Origin: a virus
Strand: one strand, 5' to 3'
Virus record (IMG/VR): IMGVR_UViG_3300020037_004335
Location: 3,445 to 67,444 of that record
DNA length: 64,000 nucleotides
The notes under the pieces are model-generated. The model had not been told where the DNA came from and did no database searches. It was given only the letters and a program-made list of their open reading frames with translations. This document shows positions 3,402 to 36,240 of this stretch, piece by piece. The first letter of the stretch is position 1. Each line of letters opens with the position of its first letter. A program made the position numbers and the translations under genes.

Positions 3402-4409
3402 TTATTTTAAATATTTATTTTTATTCTTTGAGATTTCTTTTTGAAAGTTTCTTAAGTTAAATGACTTTTTAAGATTTAATAAGCGTTCTATAGCATCGTT
3501 ATAGTTAAGAGATTTTTCGATTGACTTGTGTTTATAGTTAAACTCCATTGAAGTCTTAATTATGGGTTTGCTATAAGTGTTTAAAGTAGTTAAATCAATA
3601 TCAAACAATTCATCTTCTGAGATTGAGTAATAAGAACTAATAATATAATTTTTTGATTCTTGTTCTTCAAAGATTTTAAAAAGATAATAACTAAACTGTT
3701 CAGAAAAGAGAAATGGTCTTGAGATTGAATCTATATCAAATTTAGTTTTAGCTTTCTCTAGCTTGTCTTGAATAAAGTATCTTAAATTTGTATCGTTCCA
3801 AACATTCGGAATAACAACTCGATAGATTGGAAGCTTTTTAACAAATCTGAGATATTGTAAGAATTGATCAATGAATCTCAAGCGACTCATATAAGCATAA
3901 TCTGATTCTGTATTAGTTGGACTATTTTCATTATAAGTTATATCAGATGGTTGAAAGATTAAATCTGGAATCATGTAATAAATCTTGTGATTGTTCGAGA
4001 TAAGATATTGTATGATTTGTTCTAAATATTTGAGATCATCAAAAGAGCTGACATCTTGTTTATAAAAGAAAGTTCCAATAAAAACACTCTGATAGCCAAT
4101 AATTGAGTTAAGAGTGCTTAAATCGGATTGTTCGTAGTAATTTGTGTAAAAGTTATTATCATTTAAATAATTCAGAAAACCATTCTGATTATTCTTTATG
4201 ATTTCAACTTTATCAAATATAAAAGAGAGATCTTTATAATGAGATCCATTCAAAGACCAACTCTTATTATATTTGAAATATTCTATTATTAAATGATATA
4301 TGATATGGTGAGGGAAGTCTAAAAAACAAGCTTTATTATAAGAACTATCTGAAATAAGTTCTTGAGTCTGAAGTTTACCTTTATATTCGTACTCACCATC
4401 ATATATCAT
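3402..4409 (-). CDS. Degenerate extended-SDR / RmlD-like (NAD-dependent epimerase fold) protein
   Basis: YYMIPDLIF..TYNENSPTNTESDYAYMSR..LPIYRVVIPNVW resembles RmlD ISTDYVF..YxEDDxPxPxSxYGxSK..RxxNVYG; catalytic Lys and Gly-rich NAD loop not evident. Confidence 0.45.
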   Translation of the reverse strand: MIYDGEYEYKGKLQTQELISDSSYNKACFLDFPHHIIYHLIIEYFKYNKSWSLNGSHYKDLSFIFDKVEIIKNNQNGFLNYLNDNNFYTNYYEQSDLSTLNSIIGYQSVFIGTFFYKQDVSSFDDLKYLEQIIQYLISNNHKIYYMIPDLIFQPSDITYNENSPTNTESDYAYMSRLRFIDQFLQYLRFVKKLPIYRVVIPNVWNDTNLRYFIQDKLEKAKTKFDIDSISRPFLFSEQFSYYLFKIFEEQESKNYIISSYYSISEDELFDIDLTTLNTYSKPIIKTSMEFNYKHKSIEKSLNYNDAIERLLNLKKSFNLRNFQKEISKNKNKYLK

Positions 4410-9839: not shown

Positions 9840-10448
9840 CTAAGCTTCCTTAATATTGAAAGGAATTATATCTGATTGAAGAACTGAAAAGAAAGTATTA
9901 GCATGAGCAATGAAATCTTCTCTTGTTTTAAAATAAGCACACTCTACTTCCATTTTGAATATCTTAACCCATTCATCATAAGAATGTTTTAAGTGATCTA
10001 CTTGCAGATGATTTCTAAAAAACATCATATTAGCTAATCCACTTTTGTTGACTTCCATTACTTCTAAACCAATTACTCTGTAACGATTAGTAAACTTGAA
10101 ATCAGTTTTATAAATAACAGCTTTAGTTAAGTCTGCTTGATGGATATTAGCTCTATACAAGTTAGCTCTTGTTAAGTTAGAACCTCTTAAAGAAGTTCTC
10201 TCAAGATTTGTCTTATAAAGATGAGAGTTACTTAAATCTACTCCATCTAAATTTAAATCACTTAAATCAACTTTCTCTAAATTGACTTGAGATAAACTAT
10301 ATCCTAAATCATATAAGAATTGTACGAATTGTTTAATTGAACTTCCTTCAAATTCTGGAAAATCTTTTGATTGAAATAAGATAACTGACTCATTTGGTTT
10401 ACAATGAAACGGATTTTTATTAATTACTAAATTCATTTGTCTGAACAT
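9840..10448 (-). CDS. Second pentapeptide-repeat protein
   Basis: VNLEK VDLSD LNLDG VDLSN ... ANLYR ANIHQ ADLTK repeats; own promoter TTGACA-17-TAATAT at about 10475-10503. Confidence 0.85.
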   Translation of the reverse strand: MFRQMNLVINKNPFHCKPNESVILFQSKDFPEFEGSSIKQFVQFLYDLGYSLSQVNLEKVDLSDLNLDGVDLSNSHLYKTNLERTSLRGSNLTRANLYRANIHQADLTKAVIYKTDFKFTNRYRVIGLEVMEVNKSGLANMMFFRNHLQVDHLKHSYDEWVKIFKMEVECAYFKTREDFIAHANTFFSVLQSDIIPFNIKEA

Positions 10449-20628: not shown

Positions 20629-21561
20629 TCAACGATTTAACTCTCTAACTTTAATTGGTTCAACCAATTCACATTTTATAACATTATCATCAATGTAAAC
20701 ATGTTTATAATATGATAAACAATTTCTAAGATTAACAAATCTATCGAGATCGACTAATAAAAATAATAAATCTTCTTTAGAAAATCTTGATATGATTTCA
20801 ACATCTTTAAATTTAAAAAAATCTCCTCTACTTAAATCTTTAAGCTTAAGTTCTTTAGTTTTAGTTTTACTTTTTATTGTTTCAATTTCTATCATTTATT
20901 CATTTCTCTCTCTTTTAAATCATATCTCTTGATAAGTTTATCTAAATAACTTATATCACATAAAATACTTAAATAAACATCATATTCATTTCTAACAGCT
21001 TTTTTACATTGAATAGTTGAGAAAACTATCTCAAGATAATTTGAAACATTTTCACTAACTTCTATTGGAATATAATTAGGTCTGTTAATAATATAAAATT
21101 CAACAGAATTATCTTCAACAAGATATTTCAACATATCTTTTATTGTAAAATCTCTCAATAAATCTCTTCCAAACTCTTCATATTTATTGATTTTAAAACT
21201 ATAAGAATGAATTAAACTGTTCTTAATAATATCTTTCTTATTTTTATTTGATAAAGAACTTGTATCGTAGAACTTGCTTTGAAATTTATCCATCTTATTT
21301 AACTTCTCTAACTTTAATTGATTCAATTTGTTTTAATTTAATAACTTTTCTTCCAATATCATCAGGAAAAAATTCTGTTAAATAATGAAAACCATCCGTG
21401 AGAGAAGTATAACCATCATCTGTTTTAAAATTAAAAATATCACTGTCATTATCGACAAATCTAAACAATTGACCTTTCTCTAAATCTTCAAAATTACTTA
21501 ACTTGCCAATATCTTCTAACTTAAATTCCATAAAATTAATCCTCCATAAAATAAATTTCAT
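20629..21561 (-). CDS. Three small early ORFs; 20629-20895 and 21295-21561 are paralogs
   Basis: DLxxGxxFxFxD...SL...Y...VIK...IKVRE shared; promoter TTGACT-17-TAAGAT at about 21568-21596. Confidence 0.6.
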
Positions 21562-21760
21562 AACTAGATCTTACTACAGTCTTTTTTAAAAGTCAATAGG
21601 TTTATAATAAAATTGTTATATTACTTAATAAATTACTCAATGATTATTCAGAATCTTATAAAACTAATTTGTAGAAGAGTTTATGCTTATTAAAGTCCAA
21701 ACATATTAACTCTATAAAATCTCTTCTGTATGGACTTGCTATGAATGTTAAAAGTTAAAT

Positions 21761-22438
21761 ATGAAACCAATCAAATCTAAAAAAAAGAATAATTCATTTG
21801 AAGAAGATGAAATAAGTTTATCTAACGAATCAAACAATAAAGAAATGATGAAAACTCTAACAATGAGAGATAAAGATTCATTGCATCCATATCTTCAAGA
21901 TAGAATTAATCAACAAATAACCATTGAAACAAAGAAACAACTCGAGTCAATTAGAAAATCTCTTGATAAAGAAGACTTTGAGATCATGAAAGCGATTACG
22001 AAAGGAATGTCTGAAAAAGACATTAAAGAAGCTTATAATGTAGATCATCAATACATTGAGAATCTTTATTTAAATCCAGTGTTCTTAGAAGAATTAAGTA
22101 AATTACAAATGGAAAATACTTTTATATCAAAAGACTTTAGAAATAAAGAACTCTCTAAATTATCTGCTAGATTAATGTATGACTTACTTGAGAATAATGA
22201 AATCAGTTATATTCCAGCTCAAGAAAAGATGAGATTACTTCTTAAAATATCTGAACAATTTGATAAACAAGAAGAAGAAAAGAAAATTAATCTTGACGTT
22301 ACAGTTCAACTCAAACAAATGGGAATTGATGAAAATAGAATTAAACTTGATAACAATGGAGTTCCAATAATTAAAAGTAAATTCAAGACATTTCAAGACG
22401 TAACTATTGATAATGATACTGGTAAAATACTTAAGTAG
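21761..22438 (+). CDS. Probable terminase small subunit (HTH plus helical oligomerisation region)
   Basis: First gene of the rightward arm, upstream of terL-portal; KGMSEKDIKEAYNVDHQYIENL HTH-like; late-promoter motif upstream. Confidence 0.55.
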   Translation: MKPIKSKKKNNSFEEDEISLSNESNNKEMMKTLTMRDKDSLHPYLQDRINQQITIETKKQLESIRKSLDKEDFEIMKAITKGMSEKDIKEAYNVDHQYIENLYLNPVFLEELSKLQMENTFISKDFRNKELSKLSARLMYDLLENNEISYIPAQEKMRLLLKISEQFDKQEEEKKINLDVTVQLKQMGIDENRIKLDNNGVPIIKSKFKTFQDVTIDNDTGKILK

Positions 22439-22463
22439 ACTTCTAATAAAGGGATCGGTCTTA

Positions 22464-23243
22464 TCTTTATTTTTAATTTCTTTATCTAATTAACTTTATT
22501 CAATAAAGAGCTTATAAAAAAAACTTACGTAACCGCTACATATTTTACGTAAGTTTTTCTAAACTCTCATGTTTAAAGGAAATGTATTATTGTTTTCATA
22601 CTTACTATAATATCTAAAAATCAATTCTCTCTTATCTCTTATCAATTTATAGAAGACTTATTTTGTCTTTAATATATTTTATCCTTTTTAAAATAAACTC
22701 TTCTTAAAATCAATTTCTTAAAGAAGTTATTCATCTTTAATTTTCTCTTTTAATCATTTCTAAATTCTTAACTTAAATTTAACTATTTTTACTATTGACT
22801 TTCTTTAATCTATACTGTATTTTTAAGAACTTATATAATATATTATAATAATATATATAATAATATTAACTCTTATAATAATATCTTTATTTAAATAAGA
22901 TCTTTAAGAATATATTATTTATTATAATATTCTTCTTTTAATATTTAACTCTTATAAGATTATATTATTTAAATAAGATCTTAATTTAATATATATTATA
23001 TTTAAATATATTATAATAATATATTCTTCTTATAATAAGATCTTATATAATATATTATATAAGATCTCTTAAAAATACACTATGAGTTATAAAAAGTCAA
23101 ATTAAATTTAGGTTAAAGTAATTACTTCTTTTAGATGAAAGATAAAATCTTATTTACGTAAAATATGTAAAGGTTACGTAAATTTTTTTTATAAGCTCTT
23201 TATTGAAATAATAGAACTGATATAAAGAAATTAAAAATAAAGA
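22464..23243. repeat. Nested inverted-repeat, extremely AT-rich non-coding locus; candidate replication origin or packaging/terminus site
   Basis: About 90-bp arms 22464-22552 / 23154-23243; TTACGTAA at 22525, 22545, 23154, 23174; inner arms with convergent TTGACT-17-TATTTT; perfect 30-bp palindrome 23038-23067. Confidence 0.85.
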
Positions 23244-23406
23244 CTCAAGATATTGAATTGACTTGTAATGCTTATTATTATTTGTTTAAATCGTAAGACA
23301 CTATAAAACTAATTTATAGAGGAGATTTATTAAATATAGTCCAAATATACTCAAGATATAAAAACTCTTCTTAAAATTGAAATTTGATAGGAAAGAATTG
23401 ATTTAA

Positions 23407-25335
23407 ATGAGTGGCGTAATATTAAAAGAGAGATCTCAACAACAACTATTTTTAGAAACAATAAGATATTCTTACGATTTACCTGATGATTGTGCTGGAT
23501 TCATAACTGACTTCACTAACTTATTTCAAGAAATAGATGGAACTACATTTGATCCGTATGGTAAGCAAGTTGAATTTATGAATCTTTTGAATAAAAAAGA
23601 TAGAATAGTAGTTATACTCAAACCACGTCAATGTTTAACTGGAGATAGTTTAATTGATATTGGATCGAAGAAAATTAAAATAAAAGAACTTTATGAGATG
23701 AATTACAGAGATAATTGTATTTCCTTTAATGGTTTTTGTAAAAGTGAAGACAAAGTTGTTGATATATGGGAATCTGGAGTAAAAGAAGTTTATGAAGTAA
23801 TTCTAAGCAATGGAATGAAACTTAAATCAACTTTAGAACACAAGTACAATACTAACAATGGGTTTAAAGAACTTAAATATATTCTAAATACTGATTTAAT
23901 AGTAACTCAAGATGGATTAGCTAAGTTAAAAGACTTAAGATATTTAGGCAATGAAATAACTTATGACTTAGAAACAGAGAAATTTCATAACTATTTTGCA
24001 AATGGAATCAATGTTCATAACAGTGGATTTAGTACAGCAATTGTAGCAAGAGCAGTATTTGAAGCATATTTTAACAAGATTCCAGAAATTATAGTAGTTT
24101 CAGCTACTAGAACTCAAGCAGAGAAAGTATTAGATAGAATTAGAAAAGCTTTCTACTCAATGCCTGACTTCATGATTCCAAAATTTAAACAAGAGAACAA
24201 GTCAATGCTAGAATTGCAGAATGGAATCAAGATTATATCGCTTTCTTCTAATCCAGATTCTATGAGAGGTTGGACTGGAACATTCTACTTAGATGAGTAT
24301 GCTATTATTCCAGAAAACGACTCAATTCAAATCTATGAAGCAGTTTATCCTTCAACTACTAAGACCGGAAGAATTGTAGCAATATCAACTCCAAAAGGCA
24401 AGAAAGGAATGTATTATAGACTCGCTACTCAATCATTTACTGAAGTAACTGGAAAACAGATTAAAAATGATAAAAAGATATTTAGAATTGAATGGAAAGA
24501 TGTTCCACACATTGTAGACGCAGTTGAGAATAAAAGATTGTTTGATGGATTAGATGCTCAAATGTTAGATCAGGAATATAACTTGAACTTTAGAGATGAA
24601 GAAAATGAGCCATATTTATCTGATGATTTCTTAATGGAAAACTTTATTGAGAGAGATGGATATATTCCTTTATTCACTTGCTTTGAAGATATTAAGTTGA
24701 ACGATTATATTGACGATCATGAAAAAATGCTTCCATCTGATTTAAATTACAAGATTTTAAAAGAATCTTATGAAACTGAAACTGGATATATATCTCTTGA
24801 AGAAGTTTATGAAGACTTTATTGGAGGTTGGGATATAGCTTCAGTTAATGATGATTCAATATTTGGAGTTGCTGGAATAAGAAGAGATAATCCATTAAAA
24901 AAAGAGATTATATTTGAGACGGATCTAAAGAAATTGACTCAAGATATTATAAGACAAGCTAACTACGCTAAGAAGTTAATTGACTTTTTCCAATTATCTC
25001 AATTAACTCTTGATTATAGAGGTTTAGGTAGAGGTGTTGGAGATTATATTTTAAACGATGAGAAGTATGATGAAGATATGATTATTAAATTTGAAGCTAC
25101 TCAAGATAATAAAGTTGATGGATTCGTTAACCTTAAATCAGAAATGAGTAAAGGATTACTTAAAAGAAGATTCGATGGAAGTAAACAAGATAAAAATCAT
25201 CTAAATCAATGTCAAAATATGTATATGATTGGTAGCAAAATAATTGGTAAGGGTGGAAAAGATGACTATCCTAATATGTTAATGATGCTAATTCAAGCAT
25301 CTAGCTATACAGAAGGTGGATTTTATGTTATTTAA
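23407..25335 (+). CDS. terL: Terminase large subunit with intein
   Basis: PYGKQ, KPRQ|SGFST Walker A, SMRG, FYLDEYA Walker B, ISTPKG, GWDIA RNase H nuclease, GGKDDY. Confidence 0.93.
   Translation: MSGVILKERSQQQLFLETIRYSYDLPDDCAGFITDFTNLFQEIDGTTFDPYGKQVEFMNLLNKKDRIVVILKPRQCLTGDSLIDIGSKKIKIKELYEMNYRDNCISFNGFCKSEDKVVDIWESGVKEVYEVILSNGMKLKSTLEHKYNTNNGFKELKYILNTDLIVTQDGLAKLKDLRYLGNEITYDLETEKFHNYFANGINVHNSGFSTAIVARAVFEAYFNKIPEIIVVSATRTQAEKVLDRIRKAFYSMPDFMIPKFKQENKSMLELQNGIKIISLSSNPDSMRGWTGTFYLDEYAIIPENDSIQIYEAVYPSTTKTGRIVAISTPKGKKGMYYRLATQSFTEVTGKQIKNDKKIFRIEWKDVPHIVDAVENKRLFDGLDAQMLDQEYNLNFRDEENEPYLSDDFLMENFIERDGYIPLFTCFEDIKLNDYIDDHEKMLPSDLNYKILKESYETETGYISLEEVYEDFIGGWDIASVNDDSIFGVAGIRRDNPLKKEIIFETDLKKLTQDIIRQANYAKKLIDFFQLSQLTLDYRGLGRGVGDYILNDEKYDEDMIIKFEATQDNKVDGFVNLKSEMSKGLLKRRFDGSKQDKNHLNQCQNMYMIGSKIIGKGGKDDYPNMLMMLIQASSYTEGGFYVI
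23632..24021 (+). mobile_element. 130-aa mini-intein in the TerL Walker A motif
   Basis: CLTGDSLI...STLEHK...TYDLETEKFHNYFANGINVHN|S; no endonuclease domain. Confidence 0.93.
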
Positions 25336-26791
25336 CGAAAATGAACTAAATACTCTTGAAAATGAGTTAAAAATAGAAGAAGAGATTAAAAGAAGTGGTA
25401 AATATCCAGATTATGAACAAATGAGTCCTTCCTTCTCAGCAATCGCTCACAATCTTCCGATAACCAATAAGGAAAACATTGGAGGAATATCTGGAGATCC
25501 TTACATAAACAATCTCAATAGAACTACTTATGATACAATTGGAGCTTCATTTTATACTCTCAGACTGTTATATGAGAGAAGTAATTGGGTTAAGTTCTCT
25601 AATGTTGTTATAAGTCAAATGTTTTTATCAGCTAAACCACTTTATAGAATTAAATCAGAATCAAATAAAACTAATTCTGTTAAAGATATGGATGAGTTGT
25701 TGAAATATCCGAATAAGAATACTACAAGACATGAACTGTTTACAAATACAATTCATTCTCTTATCAGTTGTGGTAACTCTTACTGGCAAATCATTAAAAA
25801 GAGAAATGGTAAAATTCACTCAATTCATTATATTACACCAGATTCAATAAGAGTAGTTCCTTTTGTTAATAAAAGAGATGGTCAGATAGATTACGCTTAC
25901 CTTCACATTAATATGCTTCAGAATTCTATTGATAAAGTGTATTTCTCAGATGAAATAATTCATTTTAAAATTCCAAATCCTTTCAATGAGTTGTATGGTT
26001 TAACTGAGTTAAGTCCATTATTGTTAGATTGTACATTCGACTTAGAAGCTAAAAAATACATCTCAAGTTGGTTTCAACAAAGCTTTATGGGTGGAATGAT
26101 ATTTGAAATGAAAAACTCAAATAAAGAAGCTGTTAGAAGGAATAGACAAGAGATGAGAGAGAAGTTTGAAGGAACTAAAAACGCTGGAAGAACTTTAGTA
26201 TTAGAAGGTGATATGACACTTGTAAATGACGGTAACAAGATGAGAGATATTGATTTCACTAAACTCAAACAAGTTTCAAGAGATGATATATTTAATACAT
26301 TCGGAATCCCATTAAGTCAAGCTGGAATAAGATCTGAGAACGGTAATGGCAATGAAGCGATAATTAATGCTGAGATTATATCAGCTTTAAGAAACGTTGT
26401 TTATAGATATACATCAATCATGTACGAGAGAATCAATTTATCTCTTTTCAGAAATATTTTAAAAGATTCTGACTTAACTATAGAATCAGGAACAGATGGA
26501 ACATTCTCTCTTGCTAATGCTTCTAACATTGTAGCAAGTGCTTCTAAATATGCTGGAACTACAATCAATGAAAATAGAGAAATTATGGGATTACCTGTTA
26601 TTGATGATAAAGAGCAAACTCAATACTATGATAAACCACTTGTTTCAACTAATAATGGTATTTTACCTTTACCGACTTTATTTGAAAACTTCGAGTTATC
26701 TTCTAAAATGGGAGCTAATACAAATGCTGGAAACATCAAACAACCTTCATTGAAAGTAAGTACAGAACAATCTAAAATTAAAGTGGATTGA
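25316..26791 (+). CDS. Portal protein (HK97-like family)
   Basis: LLKYPN, GNSYW, DEIIHFK...YGLTEL, NAGRTLVLEG, FGIP, TINENRE..GLP; follows terL. Confidence 0.92.
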   Translation: MDFMLFNENELNTLENELKIEEEIKRSGKYPDYEQMSPSFSAIAHNLPITNKENIGGISGDPYINNLNRTTYDTIGASFYTLRLLYERSNWVKFSNVVISQMFLSAKPLYRIKSESNKTNSVKDMDELLKYPNKNTTRHELFTNTIHSLISCGNSYWQIIKKRNGKIHSIHYITPDSIRVVPFVNKRDGQIDYAYLHINMLQNSIDKVYFSDEIIHFKIPNPFNELYGLTELSPLLLDCTFDLEAKKYISSWFQQSFMGGMIFEMKNSNKEAVRRNRQEMREKFEGTKNAGRTLVLEGDMTLVNDGNKMRDIDFTKLKQVSRDDIFNTFGIPLSQAGIRSENGNGNEAIINAEIISALRNVVYRYTSIMYERINLSLFRNILKDSDLTIESGTDGTFSLANASNIVASASKYAGTTINENREIMGLPVIDDKEQTQYYDKPLVSTNNGILPLPTLFENFELSSKMGANTNAGNIKQPSLKVSTEQSKIKVD

Positions 26792-26910
26792 TGATACTTT
26801 AAAATTATACTTTATAGAGGACTTTATTCATTTAAAGTCCTTTTGTACTATCTTGATATAAACTCTTCTTATTTGACTTGCTATGAGTGCTAGAATTAAT
26901 TTAAATTCAT

Positions 26911-26967
26911 TTGACAAAAGATATTTTAGCAGTTATGATTAACTGTATATAGAATTTTAATAAAGGA
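26911..26967 (+). promoter_or_regulatory. Sigma70-type early promoter plus conserved leader box
   Basis: TTGACA-17-TATGAT then ATATAGAATTTTAATAAAGGA. Confidence 0.75.
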
Positions 26968-26974
26968 GCATTAA

Positions 26975-27679
26975 ATGAACAAAATTGAATTAATTAAATC
27001 ACAAGATCCAGAATACAAGATGTTGAAATACATTAAAGATAATTTTCAAAGCAAGCCATATTCTTTGATAGCTTATGAATTAAATAAGATGGGTTACAAG
27101 AATAAAAACGGTAATGATTTAAGCAGATTTAACATTAAAGATATACTCAAATACAAACTAAAATTAAGTAAAAAAGAAGATTTAAATAAAGAAGCAATAA
27201 AGAAATTTGAATTAAATAAAAACAAAATAAACAATATAGTAAAAGCTACTTTAAATTATTCTGATTCTAAGATTTCTAGTGTTTTAAATACTTTAGAATT
27301 ATTTACTCAAACTGGTAAAGAATGGACTGTTAACTATCTTTGCCAATATCGTCTAAATAATAAAGATTTTAAAAAGTTTGAGTATTTTGGAAGAAACGCT
27401 AATATTTATAAAAAGAGTGAAGAAAAGATAGACTATAAAATTGAAAAAATGATGCTTCAAACAATTAAAGATAATCTAGATAAAGCAGATTACGAGATTG
27501 TTGAAATATTAAATAATGAAAAAATTAAACCATTAAAAGCGTTGAAATGGACTAAAGAAAATTTGTATCACTATAGAATTTCAAGAAACATTCACAGAAC
27601 CTCCATACAAGATAAATCGATTAAATCAAGAGGAGGAACTAAGAAGAAATATTACAATATTAACTATAATAATATGTAG
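26975..27679 (+). CDS. Protein with three tandem recombinase-type DNA-binding repeats and no catalytic domain
   Basis: IAYELNKMGYKNKNGNDLSRFNI, ISSVLNTLELFTQTGKEWTVNYL, IVEILNNEKIKPLKALKWTKENL match IAxxLNxxGxxTxxGxxWxxxxV. Confidence 0.65.
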   Translation: MNKIELIKSQDPEYKMLKYIKDNFQSKPYSLIAYELNKMGYKNKNGNDLSRFNIKDILKYKLKLSKKEDLNKEAIKKFELNKNKINNIVKATLNYSDSKISSVLNTLELFTQTGKEWTVNYLCQYRLNNKDFKKFEYFGRNANIYKKSEEKIDYKIEKMMLQTIKDNLDKADYEIVEILNNEKIKPLKALKWTKENLYHYRISRNIHRTSIQDKSIKSRGGTKKKYYNINYNNM

Positions 27680-27789
27680 CTACTCACTAATTATTGTTTG
27701 CTGAGAATGTTAATTAAGGTTACTGATAACAGTCTTGATCTGATTAAGTTCAAATAACATTCTCTAAAAAAATATTCTAATAAAAATCT

Positions 27790-27818
27790 TGACAAACTCA
27801 AATAAATATGTTTTAATT
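27790..27818 (+). promoter_or_regulatory. Sigma70-type promoter of the tRNA pair
   Basis: TTGACA-17-TTTAAT with extended TG. Confidence 0.55.
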
Positions 27819-27901
27819 AGAATTGACATGTGAAATAGTCCTTATAAGAGTTAAGATAACACAGTTGTTTTTAATAAAACTTTCTTAACTTTTATTTATT
27901 T

Positions 27902-27972
27902 AGCGGAAGAGTGAAACGGTTCACGTGAGGCTCATAACCTCAAAACATTTGGTTCGACTCCAATTTCCGCAT
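27902..27972 (+). tRNA. tRNA-Met (CAT), possibly initiator-like
   Basis: Acceptor GCGGAA/TTCCGC with 1:72 mismatch, D arm GTGA/TCAC, anticodon arm TGAGG-CTCATAA-CCTCA, T loop TTCGACT; CCA not encoded. Confidence 0.85.
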
Positions 27973-27976
27973 TATG

Positions 27977-28047
27977 GCTACTGTAGTTCAACTGGTAGAA
28001 CACTCTAAAGCACATTGAGAGATTAGGTTCGACTCCTATCAGTAGAT
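27977..28047 (+). tRNA. Degenerate tRNA or tRNA-like RNA (nominal GCA/Cys anticodon, non-canonical loop)
   Basis: Intact acceptor CTACTG/CAGTAG, D arm GTTC/GAAC, T arm TAGG-TTCGACT-CCTA; anticodon loop AAGCACA lacks U33 and purine 37. Confidence 0.55.
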
Positions 28048-28077
28048 TTAAATACTCCTTCAATAAATAATTCATTT

Positions 28078-28106
28078 AATCAAGTAGCAATGCTTGATTT
28101 TTTTTT
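28078..28106 (+). terminator. Rho-independent terminator after the tRNAs
   Basis: aatcaagt-agcaat-gcttgatt followed by a T-run. Confidence 0.7.
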
Positions 28107-28153
28107 GCTTTTATGTTATCATTTACTTAGAATCATTTTAAAAGGTTAGAAAA

Positions 28154-29092
28154 TTGAAACAAAGAGCGATTATAGAAGAAACTAAACAAGAGAAAAAAGA
28201 GAAGTTTAAAAACTCATTCTCAGTTAGTAACATGATAAAAGAAGCTTACTTAAATAAACCAGATACTCACAAGAGTAAAGAAGGTTATGTTTCAATCTCT
28301 CAAATATCTGGAAACAGTTGCTTGAGAAAAGCTTATTATAAACTCAACAAAACTCCAATTCAGAACAAAACATTTGAAGGTTCTTTTATTACTGGAGTCG
28401 GTAACTTAGTTCATGATTCTCTTCAAGAAGTTTTATTAAATCTCAATACTTTAAGTACAGTGTTTCCAGAATTTAAAGGAGTTGAAGAATACTTTGAAGA
28501 TCATGATTTAAAGCTTACTGGAAGCACAGATGGATATTTTGAACATAAAGATGGCTCTATAACCGTTAACGACTTTAAAACGTGTGGTTTGAATATGTAT
28601 TTGTATCTAATCAATTCAAATAAACCAAAAAAAGATCATGTAAATCAAGTTCATTGGTATGCTTATCTTTACAAGAAACAACAAAATAAAGTGATAAACG
28701 ATTTAAAAATTACTTATATTTGTAAGAATCAGGGAAAGCCACACTTTATCAATGATGATGTTCTTAAATCATTTAATGAAACTCATTCTTATTTAAAGAA
28801 TCTAGTTGAATGGTATGAGAGTAAAGATAAAGAAACTCCAGAAAATCTAATGAAAGCTTATTATCAAGCTAATTCTCACAAAAATGAATTAGATAAACTT
28901 GCCTTCAATCACGAAGAAGACTTTATGTTTAAAGAATTTACGTTTAAATACGATGAATCTATAATTGAAGCTGAAATAGAGAAATTAAAGCAGTTTTGGG
29001 ATAGATTGAATGAAGGTAAGAAGCTTCCTAATAAAATATCAACTAAGTACATCTGTGATAGTTGTCCTTATTTAAAGACTTGTAGAGGTTAA
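28154..29092 (+). CDS. Cas4-like PD-(D/E)xK exonuclease with Fe-S cysteines
   Basis: SCLRKAYY, GNLVHD, GSTDG, NDFKT, QVHWYAY, C-terminal ICDSCPYLKTC. Confidence 0.85.
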   Translation: MKQRAIIEETKQEKKEKFKNSFSVSNMIKEAYLNKPDTHKSKEGYVSISQISGNSCLRKAYYKLNKTPIQNKTFEGSFITGVGNLVHDSLQEVLLNLNTLSTVFPEFKGVEEYFEDHDLKLTGSTDGYFEHKDGSITVNDFKTCGLNMYLYLINSNKPKKDHVNQVHWYAYLYKKQQNKVINDLKITYICKNQGKPHFINDDVLKSFNETHSYLKNLVEWYESKDKETPENLMKAYYQANSHKNELDKLAFNHEEDFMFKEFTFKYDESIIEAEIEKLKQFWDRLNEGKKLPNKISTKYICDSCPYLKTCRG

Positions 29093-29094
29093 AT

Positions 29095-29331
29095 ATGATA
29101 AGAACTAGAGTCGCTAAAAGTAAAAGAGATGAATATAATTCTGAATATGGTAATGTTAGTGCTATAGATATTCATATTCTATTTGATGCTTCTGAAGATG
29201 ATTTAAATCATTTAAAAAATAAAGAAATAAATAAAAGTTTAAAGAAAATATATGAACATTGTGAAAAGATGAATTTATCATTTTTAAGTTATTTAGATGA
29301 GTTGTTATATGAAGAAGGTAAAATGTTATGA
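29095..29331 (+). CDS. Hypothetical protein
   Basis: Coupled ORF in a rightward operon. Confidence 0.5.
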   Translation: MIRTRVAKSKRDEYNSEYGNVSAIDIHILFDASEDDLNHLKNKEINKSLKKIYEHCEKMNLSFLSYLDELLYEEGKML

Positions 29332-30320
29332 AAAGACCGAATATATTAAGTAAGAAAACAATAATAAAGCATGAGCTTTTAATGTGTAAAGATGATGACA
29401 ATGTTTGTTATTGCATTCAATGTTTTCATAATAAAATTCTTCTAGAATTAATTGATTATACAGAAGAGCTTGAGAGAGAAAATTTAGTTAATCATAGTTT
29501 AAATTCAAGTACTATTCTTGAAAATAAAAAAATTAAACAAGAAATTAAAGAATTGAGAGAAGAAAACTTAATTCTTAAAACTCCTAAACTATATAAAAGT
29601 TCAATAGAAAACGATATAGAGTTAAGTAATGAAAACAAGTATCTTTTAGAGTTAGCAAGTCTTAAATAATATGAACAAGCCAGAAATATTAAATATGAGA
29701 GATGTGTTACAATCTAATATAATTGGTTGTAGTACTCCAGAATGTAATCCACAAAAAGGTTTTTGTGTTTATTGTAGATATGAGAGAGAGATACTTGATA
29801 TAATCCAATATGTTAATCAACTTGAAGCATTAAATAAATCTCTTGAGTCTGAAAAACAATCCTTAACTAATACTAATTCAGTTTATCAAAATCAAATAAC
29901 TAAGTTAGAGAAATATAAAGAAAGACTTCGTGAATTAGAAGATAAAGTTAAAGAAGCTGTAGATATATTAGAAACTGAGAGCGAGATATAATGAATAAGC
30001 AAAAAGCACAAATATTAATAAATAAATACAAATCTAAGTATTTTGACTGTGATACTCCTAAATGTGGAGAAAATGGATTGTGTTGGGATTGCAATAAAAT
30101 TAAACCTCTTATTGATTTATTCGGTTATTTAGAAAGTCTTGAGAAAAAGCTTGAAATAGTTGATACATCCGATATATCAAATCAAACAATAAATATGCTT
30201 AAAGAGAGAATTGATGTTCTTGAAAAAGAAGCAAAAGGTTTGAGATGGATAAAAGATGAATATAATGACTTTCAAGACAAACTTAAACGAGCTTTACTTA
30301 TTCTCGATATAGAAGTATAA
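29328..30320 (+). CDS. Three tandem paralogous Cys4 (putative Zn-binding) coiled-coil proteins (29328-29669, 29671-29991, 29991-30320)
   Basis: C..C..CxxC clusters followed by LxDLxxYxxxLE and heptads; similar N-termini. Confidence 0.65.
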
Positions 30321-30480
30321 TTATAAAAAAGGAATATCGAATAATGAGTGAAAAAGATTGGTTAATTGCATTATGGGTTGGATTGATTGCTATAAGTTTT
30401 AGTTTTGATAGACAATTCAATCAAACAAAAGAGTTAATAAAAGAAGTAAAAATGGATTGTAGTAAAAGGAAATAAGTAAA

Positions 30481-30819
30481 ATGGCTATAAAAGTAGAAAA
30501 TGTGAAATCTGTTAACATATTAGAAGAAGAAGTGACTGCTTCAAGAATAGTTAAATCTAACTCTAACGAAGTTAAAATAAATCAGTTTAGTGTTGATTAT
30601 AACAATCGCTTTATTACAGAAGTTGTTTATCACGATCCTACATTTATTGGAATGTTTAATAGATTATGTAATGAGTATTCTTATGAGATCAAACAAGAAT
30701 ATGAATTTAAACTTCTTAAACTTACTTATGAAGAAGTTAGAAGTAAAACAGGACTGTATCAAGCTTTTCAAAAGAAAATGAAGTCTTTTATTGATAGTGG
30801 TGTTATAGGAGTAAAATAA
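30481..30819 (+). CDS. Hypothetical protein
   Basis: ORF with RBS. Confidence 0.5.
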   Translation: MAIKVENVKSVNILEEEVTASRIVKSNSNEVKINQFSVDYNNRFITEVVYHDPTFIGMFNRLCNEYSYEIKQEYEFKLLKLTYEEVRSKTGLYQAFQKKMKSFIDSGVIGVK

Positions 30820-30958
30820 TGAGTAATTCAGTCCTTGAGAGATTAATTCACAATCTCAACTATATTAATAAGAATGTTAATGATGATAAGATTATTGAGG
30901 GAGTTAAAGAATTAGATTTAGAAGTTTTAAACTATTTAAGAGAAAAGGAATAAATATA

Positions 30959-31750
30959 ATGGGAAGAGGAAGTAAAACAAAAGGAATTAAGAAATTCGAT
31001 AACAATTATGAATTTAATGATAAAGATTTTGATACAGTACCATCTTTTTTCTTCAATACTGACTCAATACCAGATATAAACTTCTATGCTAAGAATCTTA
31101 AACAGCAAGAGTTATTTGAGAATCTTCATAATAAAACAGTTAATTTTGTTATTGGTGAAGTTGGTACTGGTAAAACTACTGTTCCTATTATATATGCTCT
31201 ACAGATGCTTAAACAGAAGAAATATAAGAAAGTCATGTTATTTAGACCAGCTTCAGTCGATGAAGATGAGAATTTAGGTTTCTTGAAAGGAGATATGCAA
31301 GAAAAGATAGCTCCATTAATACTTCCACTGAAATCAGCTATAGAGAAGTTTGCTACAAGACACGTATATGAATCTTTAGTTAAAGCTAATTATATTGAAG
31401 GTTATTCTCTAGCTCACGTAAGAGGAATGGAGTATAGTAACACAATAGTTATTCTTGATGAATTTCAAAATACTAAACCTAAATTACTTAGAATGTTATT
31501 GACTAGAATTAATGATACTTCTAAAGTTATCATTATTGGAGATGGTAATCAAATTGATCTTCAAAATAAGTTAGACTCAGCTTTTCATGATGTTAATAGA
31601 TTTAGAAACAAGAACAAGATTGGATTCACTATTTTTGATAAAAAAGATATTGTTAGAGGTGAGATAACTAAAGTTATTGAATCGTGCTATCCAGAAGAAG
31701 AGAGTGAAGTTTCAGAATTATATAAGGAGTGGTTAAATGAGAGTAATTAA
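30959..31750 (+). CDS. phoH: PhoH-family ATPase
   Basis: GEVGTGKT, RP, LGFLKG, HVRG, ILDEFQN, LTRI, GDGNQIDL, DIVR. Confidence 0.93.
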   Translation: MGRGSKTKGIKKFDNNYEFNDKDFDTVPSFFFNTDSIPDINFYAKNLKQQELFENLHNKTVNFVIGEVGTGKTTVPIIYALQMLKQKKYKKVMLFRPASVDEDENLGFLKGDMQEKIAPLILPLKSAIEKFATRHVYESLVKANYIEGYSLAHVRGMEYSNTIVILDEFQNTKPKLLRMLLTRINDTSKVIIIGDGNQIDLQNKLDSAFHDVNRFRNKNKIGFTIFDKKDIVRGEITKVIESCYPEEESEVSELYKEWLNESN

Positions 31751-32216
31751 ACAAGAAGTAAAATATGAAGATGATAATAGTAATATCAGAATAACTTATT
31801 TTGATAAGAATGATTATAAGATAAGTAAACTAAAGAAAGTTGATTTCATTGGATTTATTAAATCATTAAATTCGTTAACTTCTGATATTCTTAGTTCTCA
31901 TGGAACTTTATCAGATGAACAGATTGATGAAATGGTTGAAGAAGAATTAGCGGTTGCTCAAGCTAGTTTAGATATAGATCAAGTTCTAACTGATTTAAAA
32001 GAATCAAGAAAAAAACCAGAACCAGTTGTATTTAGTGGAGAGATGGTAGAGATAAAGACAGCAGATGGTAGAATCATGAGAGTTAATAAAGAGTTAACTC
32101 AAGTTGAAACTTACAACTCTCCTCCTCCATCTGAGATGAGTGACAGAAGCTTCTTTGATGCTGGAAAATTTGGTTTTATTGATCCAAACTCAATGAAAGC
32201 AACAAGTAGAATTTAA
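31737..32216 (+). CDS. Hypothetical protein
   Basis: ORF coupled to phoH. Confidence 0.5.
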   Translation: MRVIKQEVKYEDDNSNIRITYFDKNDYKISKLKKVDFIGFIKSLNSLTSDILSSHGTLSDEQIDEMVEEELAVAQASLDIDQVLTDLKESRKKPEPVVFSGEMVEIKTADGRIMRVNKELTQVETYNSPPPSEMSDRSFFDAGKFGFIDPNSMKATSRI

Positions 32217-32752
32217 TGATAAGATTAATAATAACTGAAGAAGATCTTCAAGAAGCAAGAGAGTTGAGTGAGGTGTTTGGTTGCAATAATTCTTACTCAA
32301 TGTTTAAAGACAATGAGATCAAATCTAAAGAAGTTAATCTTACTGGAATGTTGGGAGAAGTTTTATTTCAAAAGCTTTTCCCAAATGCTATAAGATCTAA
32401 TAATGTTAACTATGATTTTATTCTAAATGGTCATACAATAGACGTTAAATCTAAAATAGTTAATTCAGTACCACGACCAGATTTCGTAGCTTCTGTGTTC
32501 AAATATAGTTATGAGAAACAACAAAATGATTATTATGTTTTTATGAGAATTGACAAATCATTGAAAGTAGGATACTATTTAGGAATGATTGGTAAGAAAG
32601 ATTTTCTTGATAAAGCTGTTCTATTTAGAAAAGGTGATGATACTACTAATAACAGATTTGTTTATCAGAAAGATACTTATAATGTATTTCTCAACCAATT
32701 ACATATTCCAGAATCAGTTAAATTAAGAGGAAATAAGTTGAATGTACAATAA
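32216..32752 (+). CDS. PD-(D/E)xK restriction-endonuclease-like protein
   Basis: GMLGE..YDF..IDVKS..DYYVF pattern. Confidence 0.65.
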   Translation: MIRLIITEEDLQEARELSEVFGCNNSYSMFKDNEIKSKEVNLTGMLGEVLFQKLFPNAIRSNNVNYDFILNGHTIDVKSKIVNSVPRPDFVASVFKYSYEKQQNDYYVFMRIDKSLKVGYYLGMIGKKDFLDKAVLFRKGDDTTNNRFVYQKDTYNVFLNQLHIPESVKLRGNKLNVQ

Positions 32753-35700
32753 AGAAGATTATATAAACGGTTGGAAAGATTATATAAAAGAAAAGAAGAG
32801 TTATTTAGTTGAAGCTAAACAAAATGTTTTATCTCTTCTTGAAGCTTACGATAATTCAGATAAAAGTGAATATTTTAAGAAATCCAAAAAATATGGATTG
32901 AAAATATTAAAAGAAGAAATTAAAACAAATGAAAAGATAATAAAGATATTAGAAGATTCTTTAGAAGAGGAGAAATAAAATGAGTAATGATTTTAAAAAA
33001 GAAGTTAAAGAAGGAATATTAGAAAAACTTAGAAAAATAAAAAGAGAATTTAGTAAAAATAATTTTGAAACTTCTCAAGCTATAGACCAACTAGAGTATG
33101 CTCTTGATGAAACTACGTTAGAAAAAATAGGTTCACAAGAAATAGTTGACCTTCAAAAAGACTCAATTCAATTCATTATAAGTTTAAATCGTAAGAATAT
33201 CGAATTTAATAATCAAACAATAGAAGATATTAAAATTCAAGAAAAGAAAGTTAAGGAGATGTTTTAATGATATATGATTTCAGTAAACCTCTATTAAGTT
33301 CTAACAATAGAGAACTAGTAGAACAAGATCCAACAATAGCTCAACAAGTCTTGAAAGATGTGAATGATATAATAACATCTTTTAAGACAACTGATATTAA
33401 AACTGAATTATTCACAGTTGCAATGGAGAGTTTCTTTTTAAAAACTCTTGAATCAAGTCTTACTATAATGAAATGGACAGTAGGAAAAGTGTTATTATTT
33501 AACATTGTTGATAAGAATAAATCTACCACTATTCAAGAAATTTCTCTTATTGGAAAACTTAGAGTTAAATTAAATAATGATGAAAACTCAGTTGAACTAG
33601 ACAATAATGAAGTAAAGTTACTTAGAAGCAAGATAGTTCAATCAGAATTGCCAGATAACTTTAAATTTCAGATATTAGAAGTTATTGGAATTGAGTAGAG
33701 ATGTATATTTGTTCAAGCAATACGATCATTTTAAACGATTGTGATGATAAAATTAATGAATGGTTTAGAAAAAGATGTGAAACAAATCTTTCTAAGTTTG
33801 AATTTGTGAAATTTGAGTTTGATGTTGACATTATTTCTAAAAATATCATTAATTTCTTAGAGAACGATATTGATTTTAATAAATCTCTTAAAGTCGTTCT
33901 TGTGTTTTCTAAAAAAGTTACTGAAAGCGAAGAGCTTAAAAACATTATAAGATTTAGATTTGATTTAAACGGAATTAAAACAACTTTTTTAGATTTTAAT
34001 GAAATTAATAAAACTTATATAGAAGACAAACTTAAAGAAATTGAAGAAGTCTTAAATAAACCTTATACTGAAATTAACTTTAAGACTTACTTCGATTCTG
34101 ATTTGATATTAAATGAAGTATTCAAGAAAGATAGAATTTTTAATAATTTTGTAGATGAGTTGGAGTTTGATTAAATGAAAAACATTTTTAAAGCAAATGA
34201 TACAAAAGAAGATATTCTGAATAAAATTTACTCTTTAAGAAATTTAAATACTAATCACAGAACTTTTATGTTTGAGTTAAGTAGATTAAGTTATCCAGAA
34301 TTAAATAACGTAATTAGTAATGCAGATTCTCTTTATCTTGAATCTAAATACAACAAAACTTATATGAAGCCTTTGTGGCTAAGTGATAAGAACGAGTTTT
34401 TCTGTTATGGTTATTTATTCACTGTTTTACATATTTGTGTAACCATCAATAGGTTATCAATTATTGTTGACGATGTTGATAATGGAGAGAATTGTTTTAC
34501 AAAATTCTTTGAAAATAACGAATCAAAAGATAATGAGTTGAATGAGTTTAAAAATATGTTCTTCACAGATATTGTTCTTGATTGTAAACTATTGAGAGAA
34601 TATTTAAACAATAATAAATATGAGAAATTTTAAAGGAAAATAAACAAATGAAAGTGATAGTAAATCTTAAAGATGATAATTTCTTTAAAGTTGTCAATGA
34701 AGCAACTGGTTTTACAGTTCTTGATACAATTTTATCAAGATTGTTTGAAATCTTTAAAAAAAACATAACTGAGTTTGTATTGTTCTATAAATCAGAGCAG
34801 AATCAACTCTTAAATAAATGGACTGGAGATGTCGAAATAAGTGAAATGAATTATATCTCAATTCCTTTAAAATTTGTTAGAGTCAATGAACATTCTAACA
34901 TTCTTCAGAATCTCTTATTACTTGAGAATCATATATGGGATAGCAAAGTTCTTGTTTATGATACAGATCAACTATTAAAGCTAAATCATATTCATAATTT
35001 CGATATTTGGTTTAATAAGTTTATTCAAAGAAACAATTACTCATTTGAATTTGTTGAAGAGCATTTTAATGATAACAAAATGCTTCATACTACTTACATT
35101 AATAACGGTTGTTTTAATAGAGTTAACGGAGTTGATTTTTTAGATGATTTCACATTTAGAAGCTTATATAAGTCATTAAAGATTCAGTTCAATACTGAGA
35201 TTTGTTACTTTGATTCTGGATTCGATTTGGTTGAAACTGCTAGATATATCTTAAATAATAACATTCATTTCAACGGAGAACATCTAATCTCTCAAGTCTA
35301 CAATGACTTAAGAATGAGTTCACATATCTTCAGTTATGAAGTCGATAAAATGATAAAATTGTAAATAAGTTAAGAAATATTACAAGTTTAATTAATTCTC
35401 TTTATTTTATACGTCAACTATGATTTAATTAATAAAGAGAATTTTATTTTATTGAGGAGAACCAGTTATGGATTTAGAAATCGAAACTCACAGTATTACG
35501 ACTAATTATTTAAATAGTAGCGAGTTTTTAAAACCAGTTGTAGAAGCATTATGGTTCGGTTGTGTTATAATAATACTTATATTGCTATTGTTCGGATTTA
35601 TTACAGAGAATTTTGAAATATTATAAGAGGTAAGATGCAAGTAGAAAATAAAGCTTTAATTTTATCTTGTCTAGATGGTCAACATTGGATTTACTATAAC

Positions 35701-36240
35701 GGAGAACTTATAAAAAAATGTTATGGTCAGTTCAGCGTATTAGATATATTTAAGAATGATAGTATTTTAGTTAAAAATATATCTCAACAATATTTACCAA
35801 ATAAGAAGTTTAGATTAAATAGTGAGGTAAAAGGTATTGAAGAATATGTTAATAAAATAGCTAAGAAACATTTTAGTTTTGTTAAAAATGTTAATAATAA
35901 AGGAGATATAATGAAAAAAGAAATTAAATTACCAGTTGATTCAAATGGAGAGATATTAGAATATGATAATGGGTATAGACAAAGTGGTCATATAGATAAC
36001 TTTATTAAAGATGACATACTTCAATACAGTTCATATTCAAGAGGAAGGTCTTCAATAAAAATTAAATTTAAATCTAAAATAGATGGTAAAACTCACTCAA
36101 TGTTTATTTCTGATTTTGATGATTTCATAAGAGAATCGCAAAATTTAAACAAACCAATAAATATGTTAGAACTTAAAGTTAAGATGACTTATGTTAAAAA
36201 AGGTGCTAATTATGGTTGCAAGTTCTTAGAGCTTCTTTAA
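32742..36240 (+). CDS. Cluster of hypothetical ORFs (32742-32978, 32980-33267, 33267-33698, 33701-34174, 34175-34633, 34648-35364, 35635-36240)
   Basis: Contiguous ORFs with RBSs; no recognisable motifs. Confidence 0.5.
35394..35450 (+). terminator. Probable terminator hairpin
   Basis: aattctctttatt...aataaagagaatt followed by ttattttt. Confidence 0.5.

Follow-up and report, generated by a model that had tools for sequence, protein, structure and literature searches.

The stretch of DNA analysed here, called the window in the following, is 64 kb long and comprises bases 3445–67444 of a 67,444-nt linear virus record in IMG/VR (IMGVR_UViG_3300020037_004335); all positions are counted within the window. 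Between the probable gene of the small terminase (terS) and the gene of the large terminase (terL) it contains an element of 780 nt (22464–23243), which by its sequence is a self-contained, gene-free transcription unit inserted between the two genes. Two promoters face each other across an extremely AT-rich core, and the whole is enclosed by inverted-repeat arms with terminator-like hairpins, an arrangement that is well beyond chance. The best single explanation is that the element is a transcript-activated replication origin of the R-loop type, a reading that is put forward tentatively and at somewhat less than an even chance. New here is the mirrored unit of promoter plus unwinding element in an uncultured phage, which, as we read it, is unusual but interpretable.

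Facing Promoters and AT-Rich Core

Two sigma70-like promoters of the form TTGACT-17-TATTTT are found in the element, one on the plus strand (22795–22823) reading rightward and one on the minus strand (23100–23072) reading leftward, both into the core. They are 250 bp apart and are the only two occurrences of this motif in the whole record; the inward-facing pair had already been pointed out at these positions in the initial annotation of the locus, which was made by inspection of the sequence. Both inner arms have the −35 block TTGACTTT and the block TGTATTTTTAAGA in the same form and agree over the first 18 transcribed bases, the TGTATTTTTAAGA / CTTATATAATATATTATA blocks being identical between them, while the 17-nt promoter spacer differs at several positions. 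Since the promoter blocks are identical and the spacer has diverged, this is the pattern expected if promoter function has been kept. The element promoters also match the sites TTGAC(T/A)-17-TAnnAT that are found ahead of the phage early genes (6920, 10503, 11377, 14486, 20588, and 21596 on the minus strand; 26911 on the plus strand), and the promoter type suggests a host with standard sigma70 −35/−10 promoters. Behind each of the early-gene sites come an AGGAG-type ribosome site and a start codon; the site at 26911 precedes an open reading frame (ORF) of 234 aa. Downstream of the element promoters there is only AT-rich DNA with neither a ribosome-binding site nor an ORF.

The core (22812–23061) has a GC content of 8.4%, the lowest of all 250-nt windows (mean 27.7%, standard deviation 4.2; genome GC ~27%), and it includes the two 100-bp windows that are the least stable of the record. 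It can also be read as ~2.6 tandem copies of a 79-nt unit (22822–23022), and it contains four GATC, every one within AGATCT. The word AATAAGATCTT is present in three copies and is found in the element only, so that the nearly G/C-free core of ~250 bp with repeated words, as it was first described, is borne out. The same is true of the perfect 30-nt palindrome (23038–23067; 100%), which consists of the initial transcribed block of the leftward promoter and an inverted copy of it. Core and promoters together form an imperfect inner palindrome of 340 nt (22778–23117; centre at 22947.5), which is self-complementary to 73% over 350 columns (E 6e-38) and as single-stranded DNA folds with −45.4 kcal/mol as compared to −28.0 ± 3.1 kcal/mol for shuffled sequences (z −5.6).

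The gap between terS and terL in which the element is located measures 968 nt and is the largest of the 19 non-coding gaps of at least 60 nt in the window. It contains no ORF of at least 40 aa, and its small ORFs of 21–36 aa carry no convincing signals. A search of the gap against Rfam gave no match; at E values up to 1 only a chance miRNA match appeared.

Outer Arms and Predicted Transcripts

The element is bounded by an outer inverted repeat centred at 22853.5, the left arm of which (22464–22552) matches the right arm (23243–23154) to 87.8% over 90 columns (BLAST E 4e-27); the inner 54 nt of the arms are complementary to 94%. The imperfect arms of ~90 bp in the initial annotation are thus real features. 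An assembly-made inverted duplication is an unlikely source of them because its arms would be identical, whereas these differ at ~12% of the positions. The two-fold symmetry of the locus had been described as nested, and nested it is; a common centre, however, is not present, the centres of the outer and the inner symmetry being 94 nt apart.

Each arm carries two copies of the palindromic octamer TTACGTAA, two helical turns apart (22525 and 22545 in the left arm, 23154 and 23174 in the right arm). That this octamer is uncommon was correctly seen: all four sites of the window lie in the element, a number reached in 0 of 100 shuffles, and there is no further site in the whole 67,444-nt record. 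The octamers had been interpreted as phased initiator boxes. A more economical explanation is that the pair in each arm makes up the stem of a hairpin, one octamer per side, with a loop of 12 nt and T8 behind it, so that the octamers would be parts of outward-facing terminators. Outward the left-arm stem continues into A8 and inward into T5, and the right arm has T8 on the outside. Read on the minus strand, the left hairpin and its T8 (22516–22558) resemble a terminator for leftward transcripts and, with T5, a weaker one for rightward transcripts; on the plus strand the right hairpin and its T8 (23152–23190) resemble a terminator for rightward transcripts. For the minus strand the RNA fold has −23.0 kcal/mol (z −5.8) in the left arm and −8.2 kcal/mol in the right arm; for the plus strand the corresponding values are −15.2 kcal/mol (z −5.25) and −10.1 kcal/mol (z −2.1). 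Both arms are among the eight candidates that a relaxed scan for hairpins with T-runs (stem of at least 6 bp, loop 3–12 nt, T6 or more) found in the 64-kb window, each with a 9-bp stem and with T8 on the strand reading out of the element.

The arm hairpins, we infer, terminate transcription. Since they face the transcripts leaving the element, the whole can be regarded as an insulated, ORF-free, convergently transcribed cassette. The plus RNA is predicted to extend from ~22830 to ~23190 and the minus RNA from ~23065 to ~22516; the two would be complementary over ~235 nt and would both stop short of terS and terL. Each of them would meet on its own strand the hairpin and T8 of the mirrored arm and would therefore not run into terS (in antisense) or into terL (in the forward direction). 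Because the predicted transcripts begin and end inside the cassette and encode nothing, any function should lie with the DNA, acting in cis, or with the RNAs themselves.

Outside of this phage, the octamer was encountered in an unrelated 176-kb AT-rich phage contig (IMGVR_UViG_3300049793_000301), where tandem 20-nt repeats each carry TTACGTAA (L028:3001–3090). Several other contigs have two to three close copies of TTACGTAA that resemble operator or iteron arrays.

Insertion into a Conserved Gene Pair

The record, the completeness of which is ~48% as estimated with CheckV, is by its PHROG and Pfam matches that of a lytic-type myovirus. The matches include tail sheath and baseplate proteins, a DnaB-like helicase, a fragment of a Pol III alpha-like polymerase, ribonucleotide reductase, PhoH, dihydrofolate reductase, an HK97-type portal and a T4-type TerL N-domain. 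Genes are on the minus strand left of 21561 and on the plus strand from 21761 to 36240. The place where the gene orientation diverges (21561/21761) is near the element, as had been noted, yet it lies ~0.9 kb and one gene to its left; the replication genes are 13–21 kb distant from the element. With the DNA of the locus no match was obtained among 50,697 phage records, and the best matches of the portal protein in the same records have at most 23% identity, from which it follows that there is no annotated relative and no close isolated phage. Parts of the stretch are contained in sequencing runs from 11 studies (20 entries); two of these entries, both from one sample that may be the source, contain at least half of its words.

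Related contigs were found with alignments of portal and TerL at 25–48% protein identity. Nine of them are informative in that they show the DNA before terL (L047, L045, L145, L146, L124, L122, L144, L046, and L043). Two are uninformative, L042 starting 86 nt before terL and L143 inside terL; L048 was left out, and L123/L147, L139, L140, and L141 duplicate contigs that are included anyway. In eight of the nine (all but L043) an ORF of 157–246 aa on the same strand abuts or overlaps terL, according to mechanical ORF calls; in L122 and L144 this ORF is open towards the start of the contig. Among the relatives with the region, L043 is the closest (TerL 48% identical); it has a spacer of 245 nt without similarity to the element. 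The upstream ORFs of L047, L045, and L043 are 17, 14, and 34% identical, respectively, to the 225-aa ORF that precedes the element. Nothing resembling the element was found in the available DNA of the relatives, and within the part of the genome that the 67-kb record covers there were self-matches only and no second copy.

Searches with exact words in IMG/VR, which cover copies with unchanged words, gave 33 loci for TTACGTAA-N12-TTACGTAA, none of them related by blastn, one chance match in a giant-virus contig for a 22-mer of the arm, and no match for a promoter with its initial transcribed block. Locus searches with TerL and portal as single proteins yielded no relatives. A metagenome scan with the TerL alignment yielded three loci, all distant, and a scan of genome contigs with the portal alignment gave as best match (35% identity) a 3.4-kb contig of a metagenome-assembled genome that lacks the junction. 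There is no target-site duplication at the element, which is flanked by TTA on the left and CTC on the right.

A few candidates had to be discarded. Among the 33 loci with the word pair, tblastn gave only weak matches to terL, in L013 and L022 (26% over 167 aa, E ~4e-4); these two show no similarity to the element, the word pair being there by chance. An AT-rich similarity in L042 (3186–3363) is compositional, the gap containing a tRNA-like sequence and a reverse ORF but no symmetric element, and a further candidate in the same contig (13859–14491) is coding. Contig ends of the relatives were considered as a hint to a genome terminus, yet they do not cluster upstream of terL: only L042 starts in the spacer, while L144 starts in the upstream ORF and L143 inside terL.

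A Proposed Transcript-Activated Origin

In the element a promoter lies directly upstream of an A+T-rich unwinding element, which is the defining arrangement of origins of the T4 oriF/oriG type. As far as the excerpt of PMC3016281 goes, the transcript at oriF and oriG forms a persistent R-loop from which the leading strand is primed, and heterologous unwinding elements can take the place of the natural one. The likeness to oriF (uvsY) and oriG (gene 34) lies in the sigma70-type −10 followed by the A+T-rich unwinding element and in the fact that, in the same excerpt, no sequence-specific initiator or iterons are needed (PMC3016281). Active T4 origins are also described there as lying near switches of the transcribed strand and shifts of composition bias (PMC3016281). 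The differences should not be overlooked. T4 origins are ~100 bp long, have one MotA-dependent promoter and start with one leading strand; in the present element, by contrast, a core of 250 bp lies between two promoters that face each other and have a host-type −35, and the terminator-like arms are mirrored.

A second comparison is with the origins of Ceduovirus, which in the part of PMC7150918 that we could draw on are ORF-free regions with early promoters that support the replication of plasmids. Like the origin of the Lactococcus phage c2, a member of this genus, the element is non-coding and has an early promoter without a ribosome-binding site or ORF behind it (PMC7150918, in the same part). 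It differs from the Ceduovirus origin in that one gene separates it from the divergence on its left and in that relatives do not have it. An early transcript is reportedly essential for the c2 origin, to go by the title of Schiemann et al. 2004. In origins of the ColE1 type there are overlapping convergent transcripts, one of which primes DNA synthesis. These origins, however, work in one direction and are asymmetric, the primer being long and the antisense RNA short, whereas the element consists of near mirror-image units. Transcript priming in ColE1 is mentioned in the excerpt of PMC3016281 as well. It is the resemblance to the minimal T4 oriF/oriG origin and to the ORF-free origins of Ceduovirus that places the transcript-activated origin first among the explanations.

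The mechanism could be as follows. Host RNA polymerase would fire both promoters early in infection, and the RNAs would remain paired with the AT-rich core, as at T4 oriF/oriG, and hold the core open. They would then be trimmed to primers, one for the leading strand in each direction, and the DnaB-type helicase of the phage would be loaded on the displaced strands. The outer arms would limit the length of the RNAs and insulate the packaging genes. The initial annotation had named melting or priming driven by transcription. According to the twin-domain model, converging transcription should overwind the DNA between the polymerases. Since the core lies between converging polymerases and would be overwound, priming or R-loop formation fits better than melting.

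A more elaborate version is a mirror-symmetric double R-loop origin, in which two transcripts of the host polymerase would cross the shared core from opposite sides, prime one leading strand each and set up both forks at once. The arms, as RNA, would stop the primers and, as displaced single-stranded DNA, would form hairpins (predicted folds of −9 to −15 kcal/mol) that signal the loading of helicase and primase on the lagging strands; the unit would then be a portable origin cassette gained by insertion. This version appears decidedly unlikely.

Evidence from nucleotide skew, which had been proposed as a check, has to be treated with care. The cumulative GC skew does have its minimum at the locus, but this is uninformative because the skew flips at every gene-strand switch along the window. 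A more suitable measure is the coding-strand GC skew at third codon positions (GC3 skew) of ORFs of at least 300 nt, which is +0.151 for the minus-strand genes on the left (n = 22), +0.120 for the plus-strand genes (n = 24) and −0.004 for the minus-strand genes on the right (n = 23). In Mann-Whitney tests the p values are 0.026 for left-minus vs. right-minus, 0.063 for plus vs. right-minus and 0.64 for left-minus vs. plus. Genes transcribed away from ~21.5–23.4 kb thus have more G in the coding strand than genes transcribed towards it, which weakly fits forks leaving the area of the locus.

Several observations speak against an origin. The skew does not distinguish the element from the divergent promoter region at 21562–21760, in a record that is less than half complete, and it is confounded with gene class, the minus-strand genes on the right being tail and baseplate genes. 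The element has no iteron array, there being only two octamers per arm that form hairpin stems, and no DnaA box, and the neighbouring ORFs have no match to an initiator family. The stretch with 8% GC could be unconstrained DNA in an AT-biased genome. A strict terminator scan of 21000–24000 found no sites, the arm hairpins, with stems of 9–10 bp, failing it with their 12-nt loop and only 2–3 G-C pairs. The element is missing from the site before terL in all nine informative relatives; this makes it a derived, lineage-specific and recent insertion, so that the ancestral origin must be elsewhere. Of the bidirectional origin as initially proposed, then, the promoters, the least stable core and the GC3 skew remain on the credit side, and the lack of iterons, DnaA box and initiator gene and the absence in relatives on the other.

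Alternative Explanations

The same promoters, arms and insertion would be found if the element were a non-coding "moron", i.e., an acquired unit making a convergent antisense pair of RNAs or long AU-rich hairpin RNAs without a role in replication. Morons of phages are insertions between conserved neighbours with their own promoter, terminator and protein-coding gene, from which the element differs in that it has no ORF of at least 40 aa. It does have its own promoters and terminator-like arms, it is inserted between two conserved adjacent genes, the promoters and the initial transcribed blocks are conserved between the arms, and the 340-nt palindrome would fold each RNA into a long hairpin. 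The RNAs would act in trans, e.g., on host or phage factors or as substrates of RNase III. However, at ~92% A+U over the overlap their base pairing would be rather unspecific, and the functional RNAs of AT-rich genomes as a rule exceed the neighbouring sequence in G+C content; moreover, Rfam is without a match, and no homologue was found with which covariation could be followed. On balance we consider a moron possible but rather unlikely. A lineage-specific insertion with 90-nt terminal inverted repeats would equally be left by a selfish or neutral foldback event, either an insertion resembling a miniature inverted-repeat transposable element (MITE) or a recombination scar from duplicated local promoter and terminator modules, in both cases functionless. 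The extreme AT content and the tandem repeats would then reflect mutational decay and slippage, and the degenerate inverted copy of the terL upstream module (see below), the 79-nt tandem repeats and the differing symmetry centres, which suggest several rearrangement events, would find a ready explanation. MITE and foldback elements such as the Correia elements and the mycobacteriophage MPMEs are non-autonomous, have terminal inverted repeats and in some cases have promoter or terminator activity. The element deviates from them with its length of 780 nt, its 90-nt arms, the lack of a target-site duplication and of a transposase, and its single copy in the 67-kb record, to which the exact words of arm and promoter add no related match in IMG/VR. 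In addition, promoter hexamers and arms are conserved (identical blocks; 88–94%) above the 73% of the remainder, which speaks for constraint. We regard a foldback insertion as unlikely.

The location just behind the probable terS and ahead of terL brings to mind a packaging (pac) region. The two mirrored pairs of TTACGTAA would then be the four binding sites of TerS, which would loop the DNA, and the AT-rich DNA in between would be cut by TerL. None of the four palindromic octamers recurs elsewhere in the record, those of a pair are two helical turns apart, positional homologues of TerS carry a helix-turn-helix (HTH) domain, and words containing GATC cluster in the core. In the pac site of phage P1, hexamers containing GATC are found on both sides of the cleavage region. 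For an intergenic pac there is a precedent, 489 bp long, in the lytic myovirus ICP1, if the available portion of the report is a guide (10.1101/2024.04.22.590561). With P1 and ICP1 the element shares the repeated short words next to terminase genes, but not the rest: the site is absent in relatives, eight of nine of which have no spacer before terL and one of which has an unrelated spacer of 245 nt, so that their pac must be elsewhere, commonly within terS; a pac site has no use for promoters and terminators; and hairpin stems with A and T runs on their flanks account for the octamer pairs just as well. We consider a pac region very unlikely. Still less can be said for a site of DNA rearrangement, at which the 600-nt segment between the arms would invert or the palindrome would be resolved into hairpin telomeres, the latter having been an alternative in the initial annotation. 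It is true that inverted repeats flank a promoter-bearing segment with a perfect 30-nt palindrome and that the 234-aa ORF (26975–27679) has sub-threshold matches to Recombinase and HTH_62 (E 0.0012 and 0.004). But no resolvase, invertase, integrase or protelomerase family scored above threshold among the ORFs scanned in the partial record, and since the promoters of the segment face inward, inversion would switch nothing outside of it. Unlike a protelomerase target of the telRL type, the perfect palindrome is off-centre in both symmetry systems (22853.5 and 22947.5). We regard this explanation as highly improbable.

Flanking Genes and Other Features of the Record

Both genes flanking the element had been named in the initial annotation. 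For terL (23407–25335, plus strand) this is straightforward (PHROG 2, E 2.5e-26; Terminase_6N). For terS it is probable: the 225-aa ORF (21761–22438, plus strand) has no Pfam or PHROG match, adjoins terL on the upstream side and compares with T5_Terminase_small clusters with a feature score of 0.94 in the ESM Atlas (170 shared features). The positional homologues in L047 (phrog_2538, E 4.5e-5) and L045 have weak TerS and HTH matches. The sole near relative of the 225-aa ORF is P0016 (89% identical), encoded on a 2.6-kb contig; for the portal protein there is likewise a near relative, P0001 (90% identical), on a contig of 18.8 kb. A profile from the TerS-like alignment gave against PDB sequences only generic matches to HTH response regulators (E 0.009 or more). 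TerL contains a mini-intein (aa 87–167; Intein_splicing, E 4.3e-10). In the TerL alignment, L043 and L047 have inserts at the intein position and L045 (8549–9979) has none, while the TerL of L042 (87–2636) has a far longer insert with ~340 extra residues, possibly including an endonuclease domain.

Upstream of terL there is a module (23302–23404, plus strand) composed of a short hairpin and the sequence TATAAA(A)NCTCTTCT, which is repeated before the TerS ORF (21657–21727; 79% over 72 nt, E 2.4e-11) and before the 234-aa ORF (~26810–26880), the latter copy having been recognised by eye. All copies have the core TAAA..CTCTTCT in common (21715, 23359, 26859). A degenerate inverted copy (22618–22716, minus strand) lies within the left spacer of the element (22553–22777); 22618–22679 matches 23404–23343 to 77% over 62 nt (E 3.6e-9), the longer alignment extends over ~100 nt, and the exact 16-mer AAACTCTTCTTAAAAT is found at 22695 and 23362. 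With copies of the module around the locus, the region has in part been assembled from local regulatory repeats. The repeated module may be a late promoter or leader cassette of the phage, and it may drive local recombination.

Further observations concern the rest of the window. The polymerase ORF (1546–3084, minus strand), a DNA polymerase by PHROG, matches only the finger and HHH domains of bacterial Pol III alpha, and a 335-aa ORF upstream of it (3402–4409, minus strand) has no match; the polymerase may be split or highly diverged. Two pentapeptide-repeat proteins are encoded in the early region (831–1472 and 9840–10448, both on the minus strand; PF00805, E 5.7e-36 and 2.4e-21). At 27902–28047 (plus strand) there are two tRNA matches by Rfam, only tRNA-Met being found by ARAGORN, followed by a candidate terminator of a hairpin with T9 (28080–28106); L042 has a tRNA-like sequence between terL and the portal gene. 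Just 3′ of the portal gene lies a PD-(D/E)XK / Cas4-like nuclease (28154–29092, plus strand), which is kept in the two closest relatives (L042:5169–6167 and L043:5240–6202).

Significance

For almost all uncultured phages the origins and packaging sites are unknown, and only few phage origins have been dissected. The anatomy described here gives exact predicted starts and ends of transcripts as well as deletion boundaries. If the element is an origin, then two promoters, two terminators and an unwinding core would suffice for a complete origin, in the form of a small portable module which can be inserted between essential genes and which would achieve a bidirectional start by mirroring an R-loop origin of the T4 type. 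If the element instead makes RNAs or is selfish, it would be a gene-free moron or a foldback element in a lytic phage.

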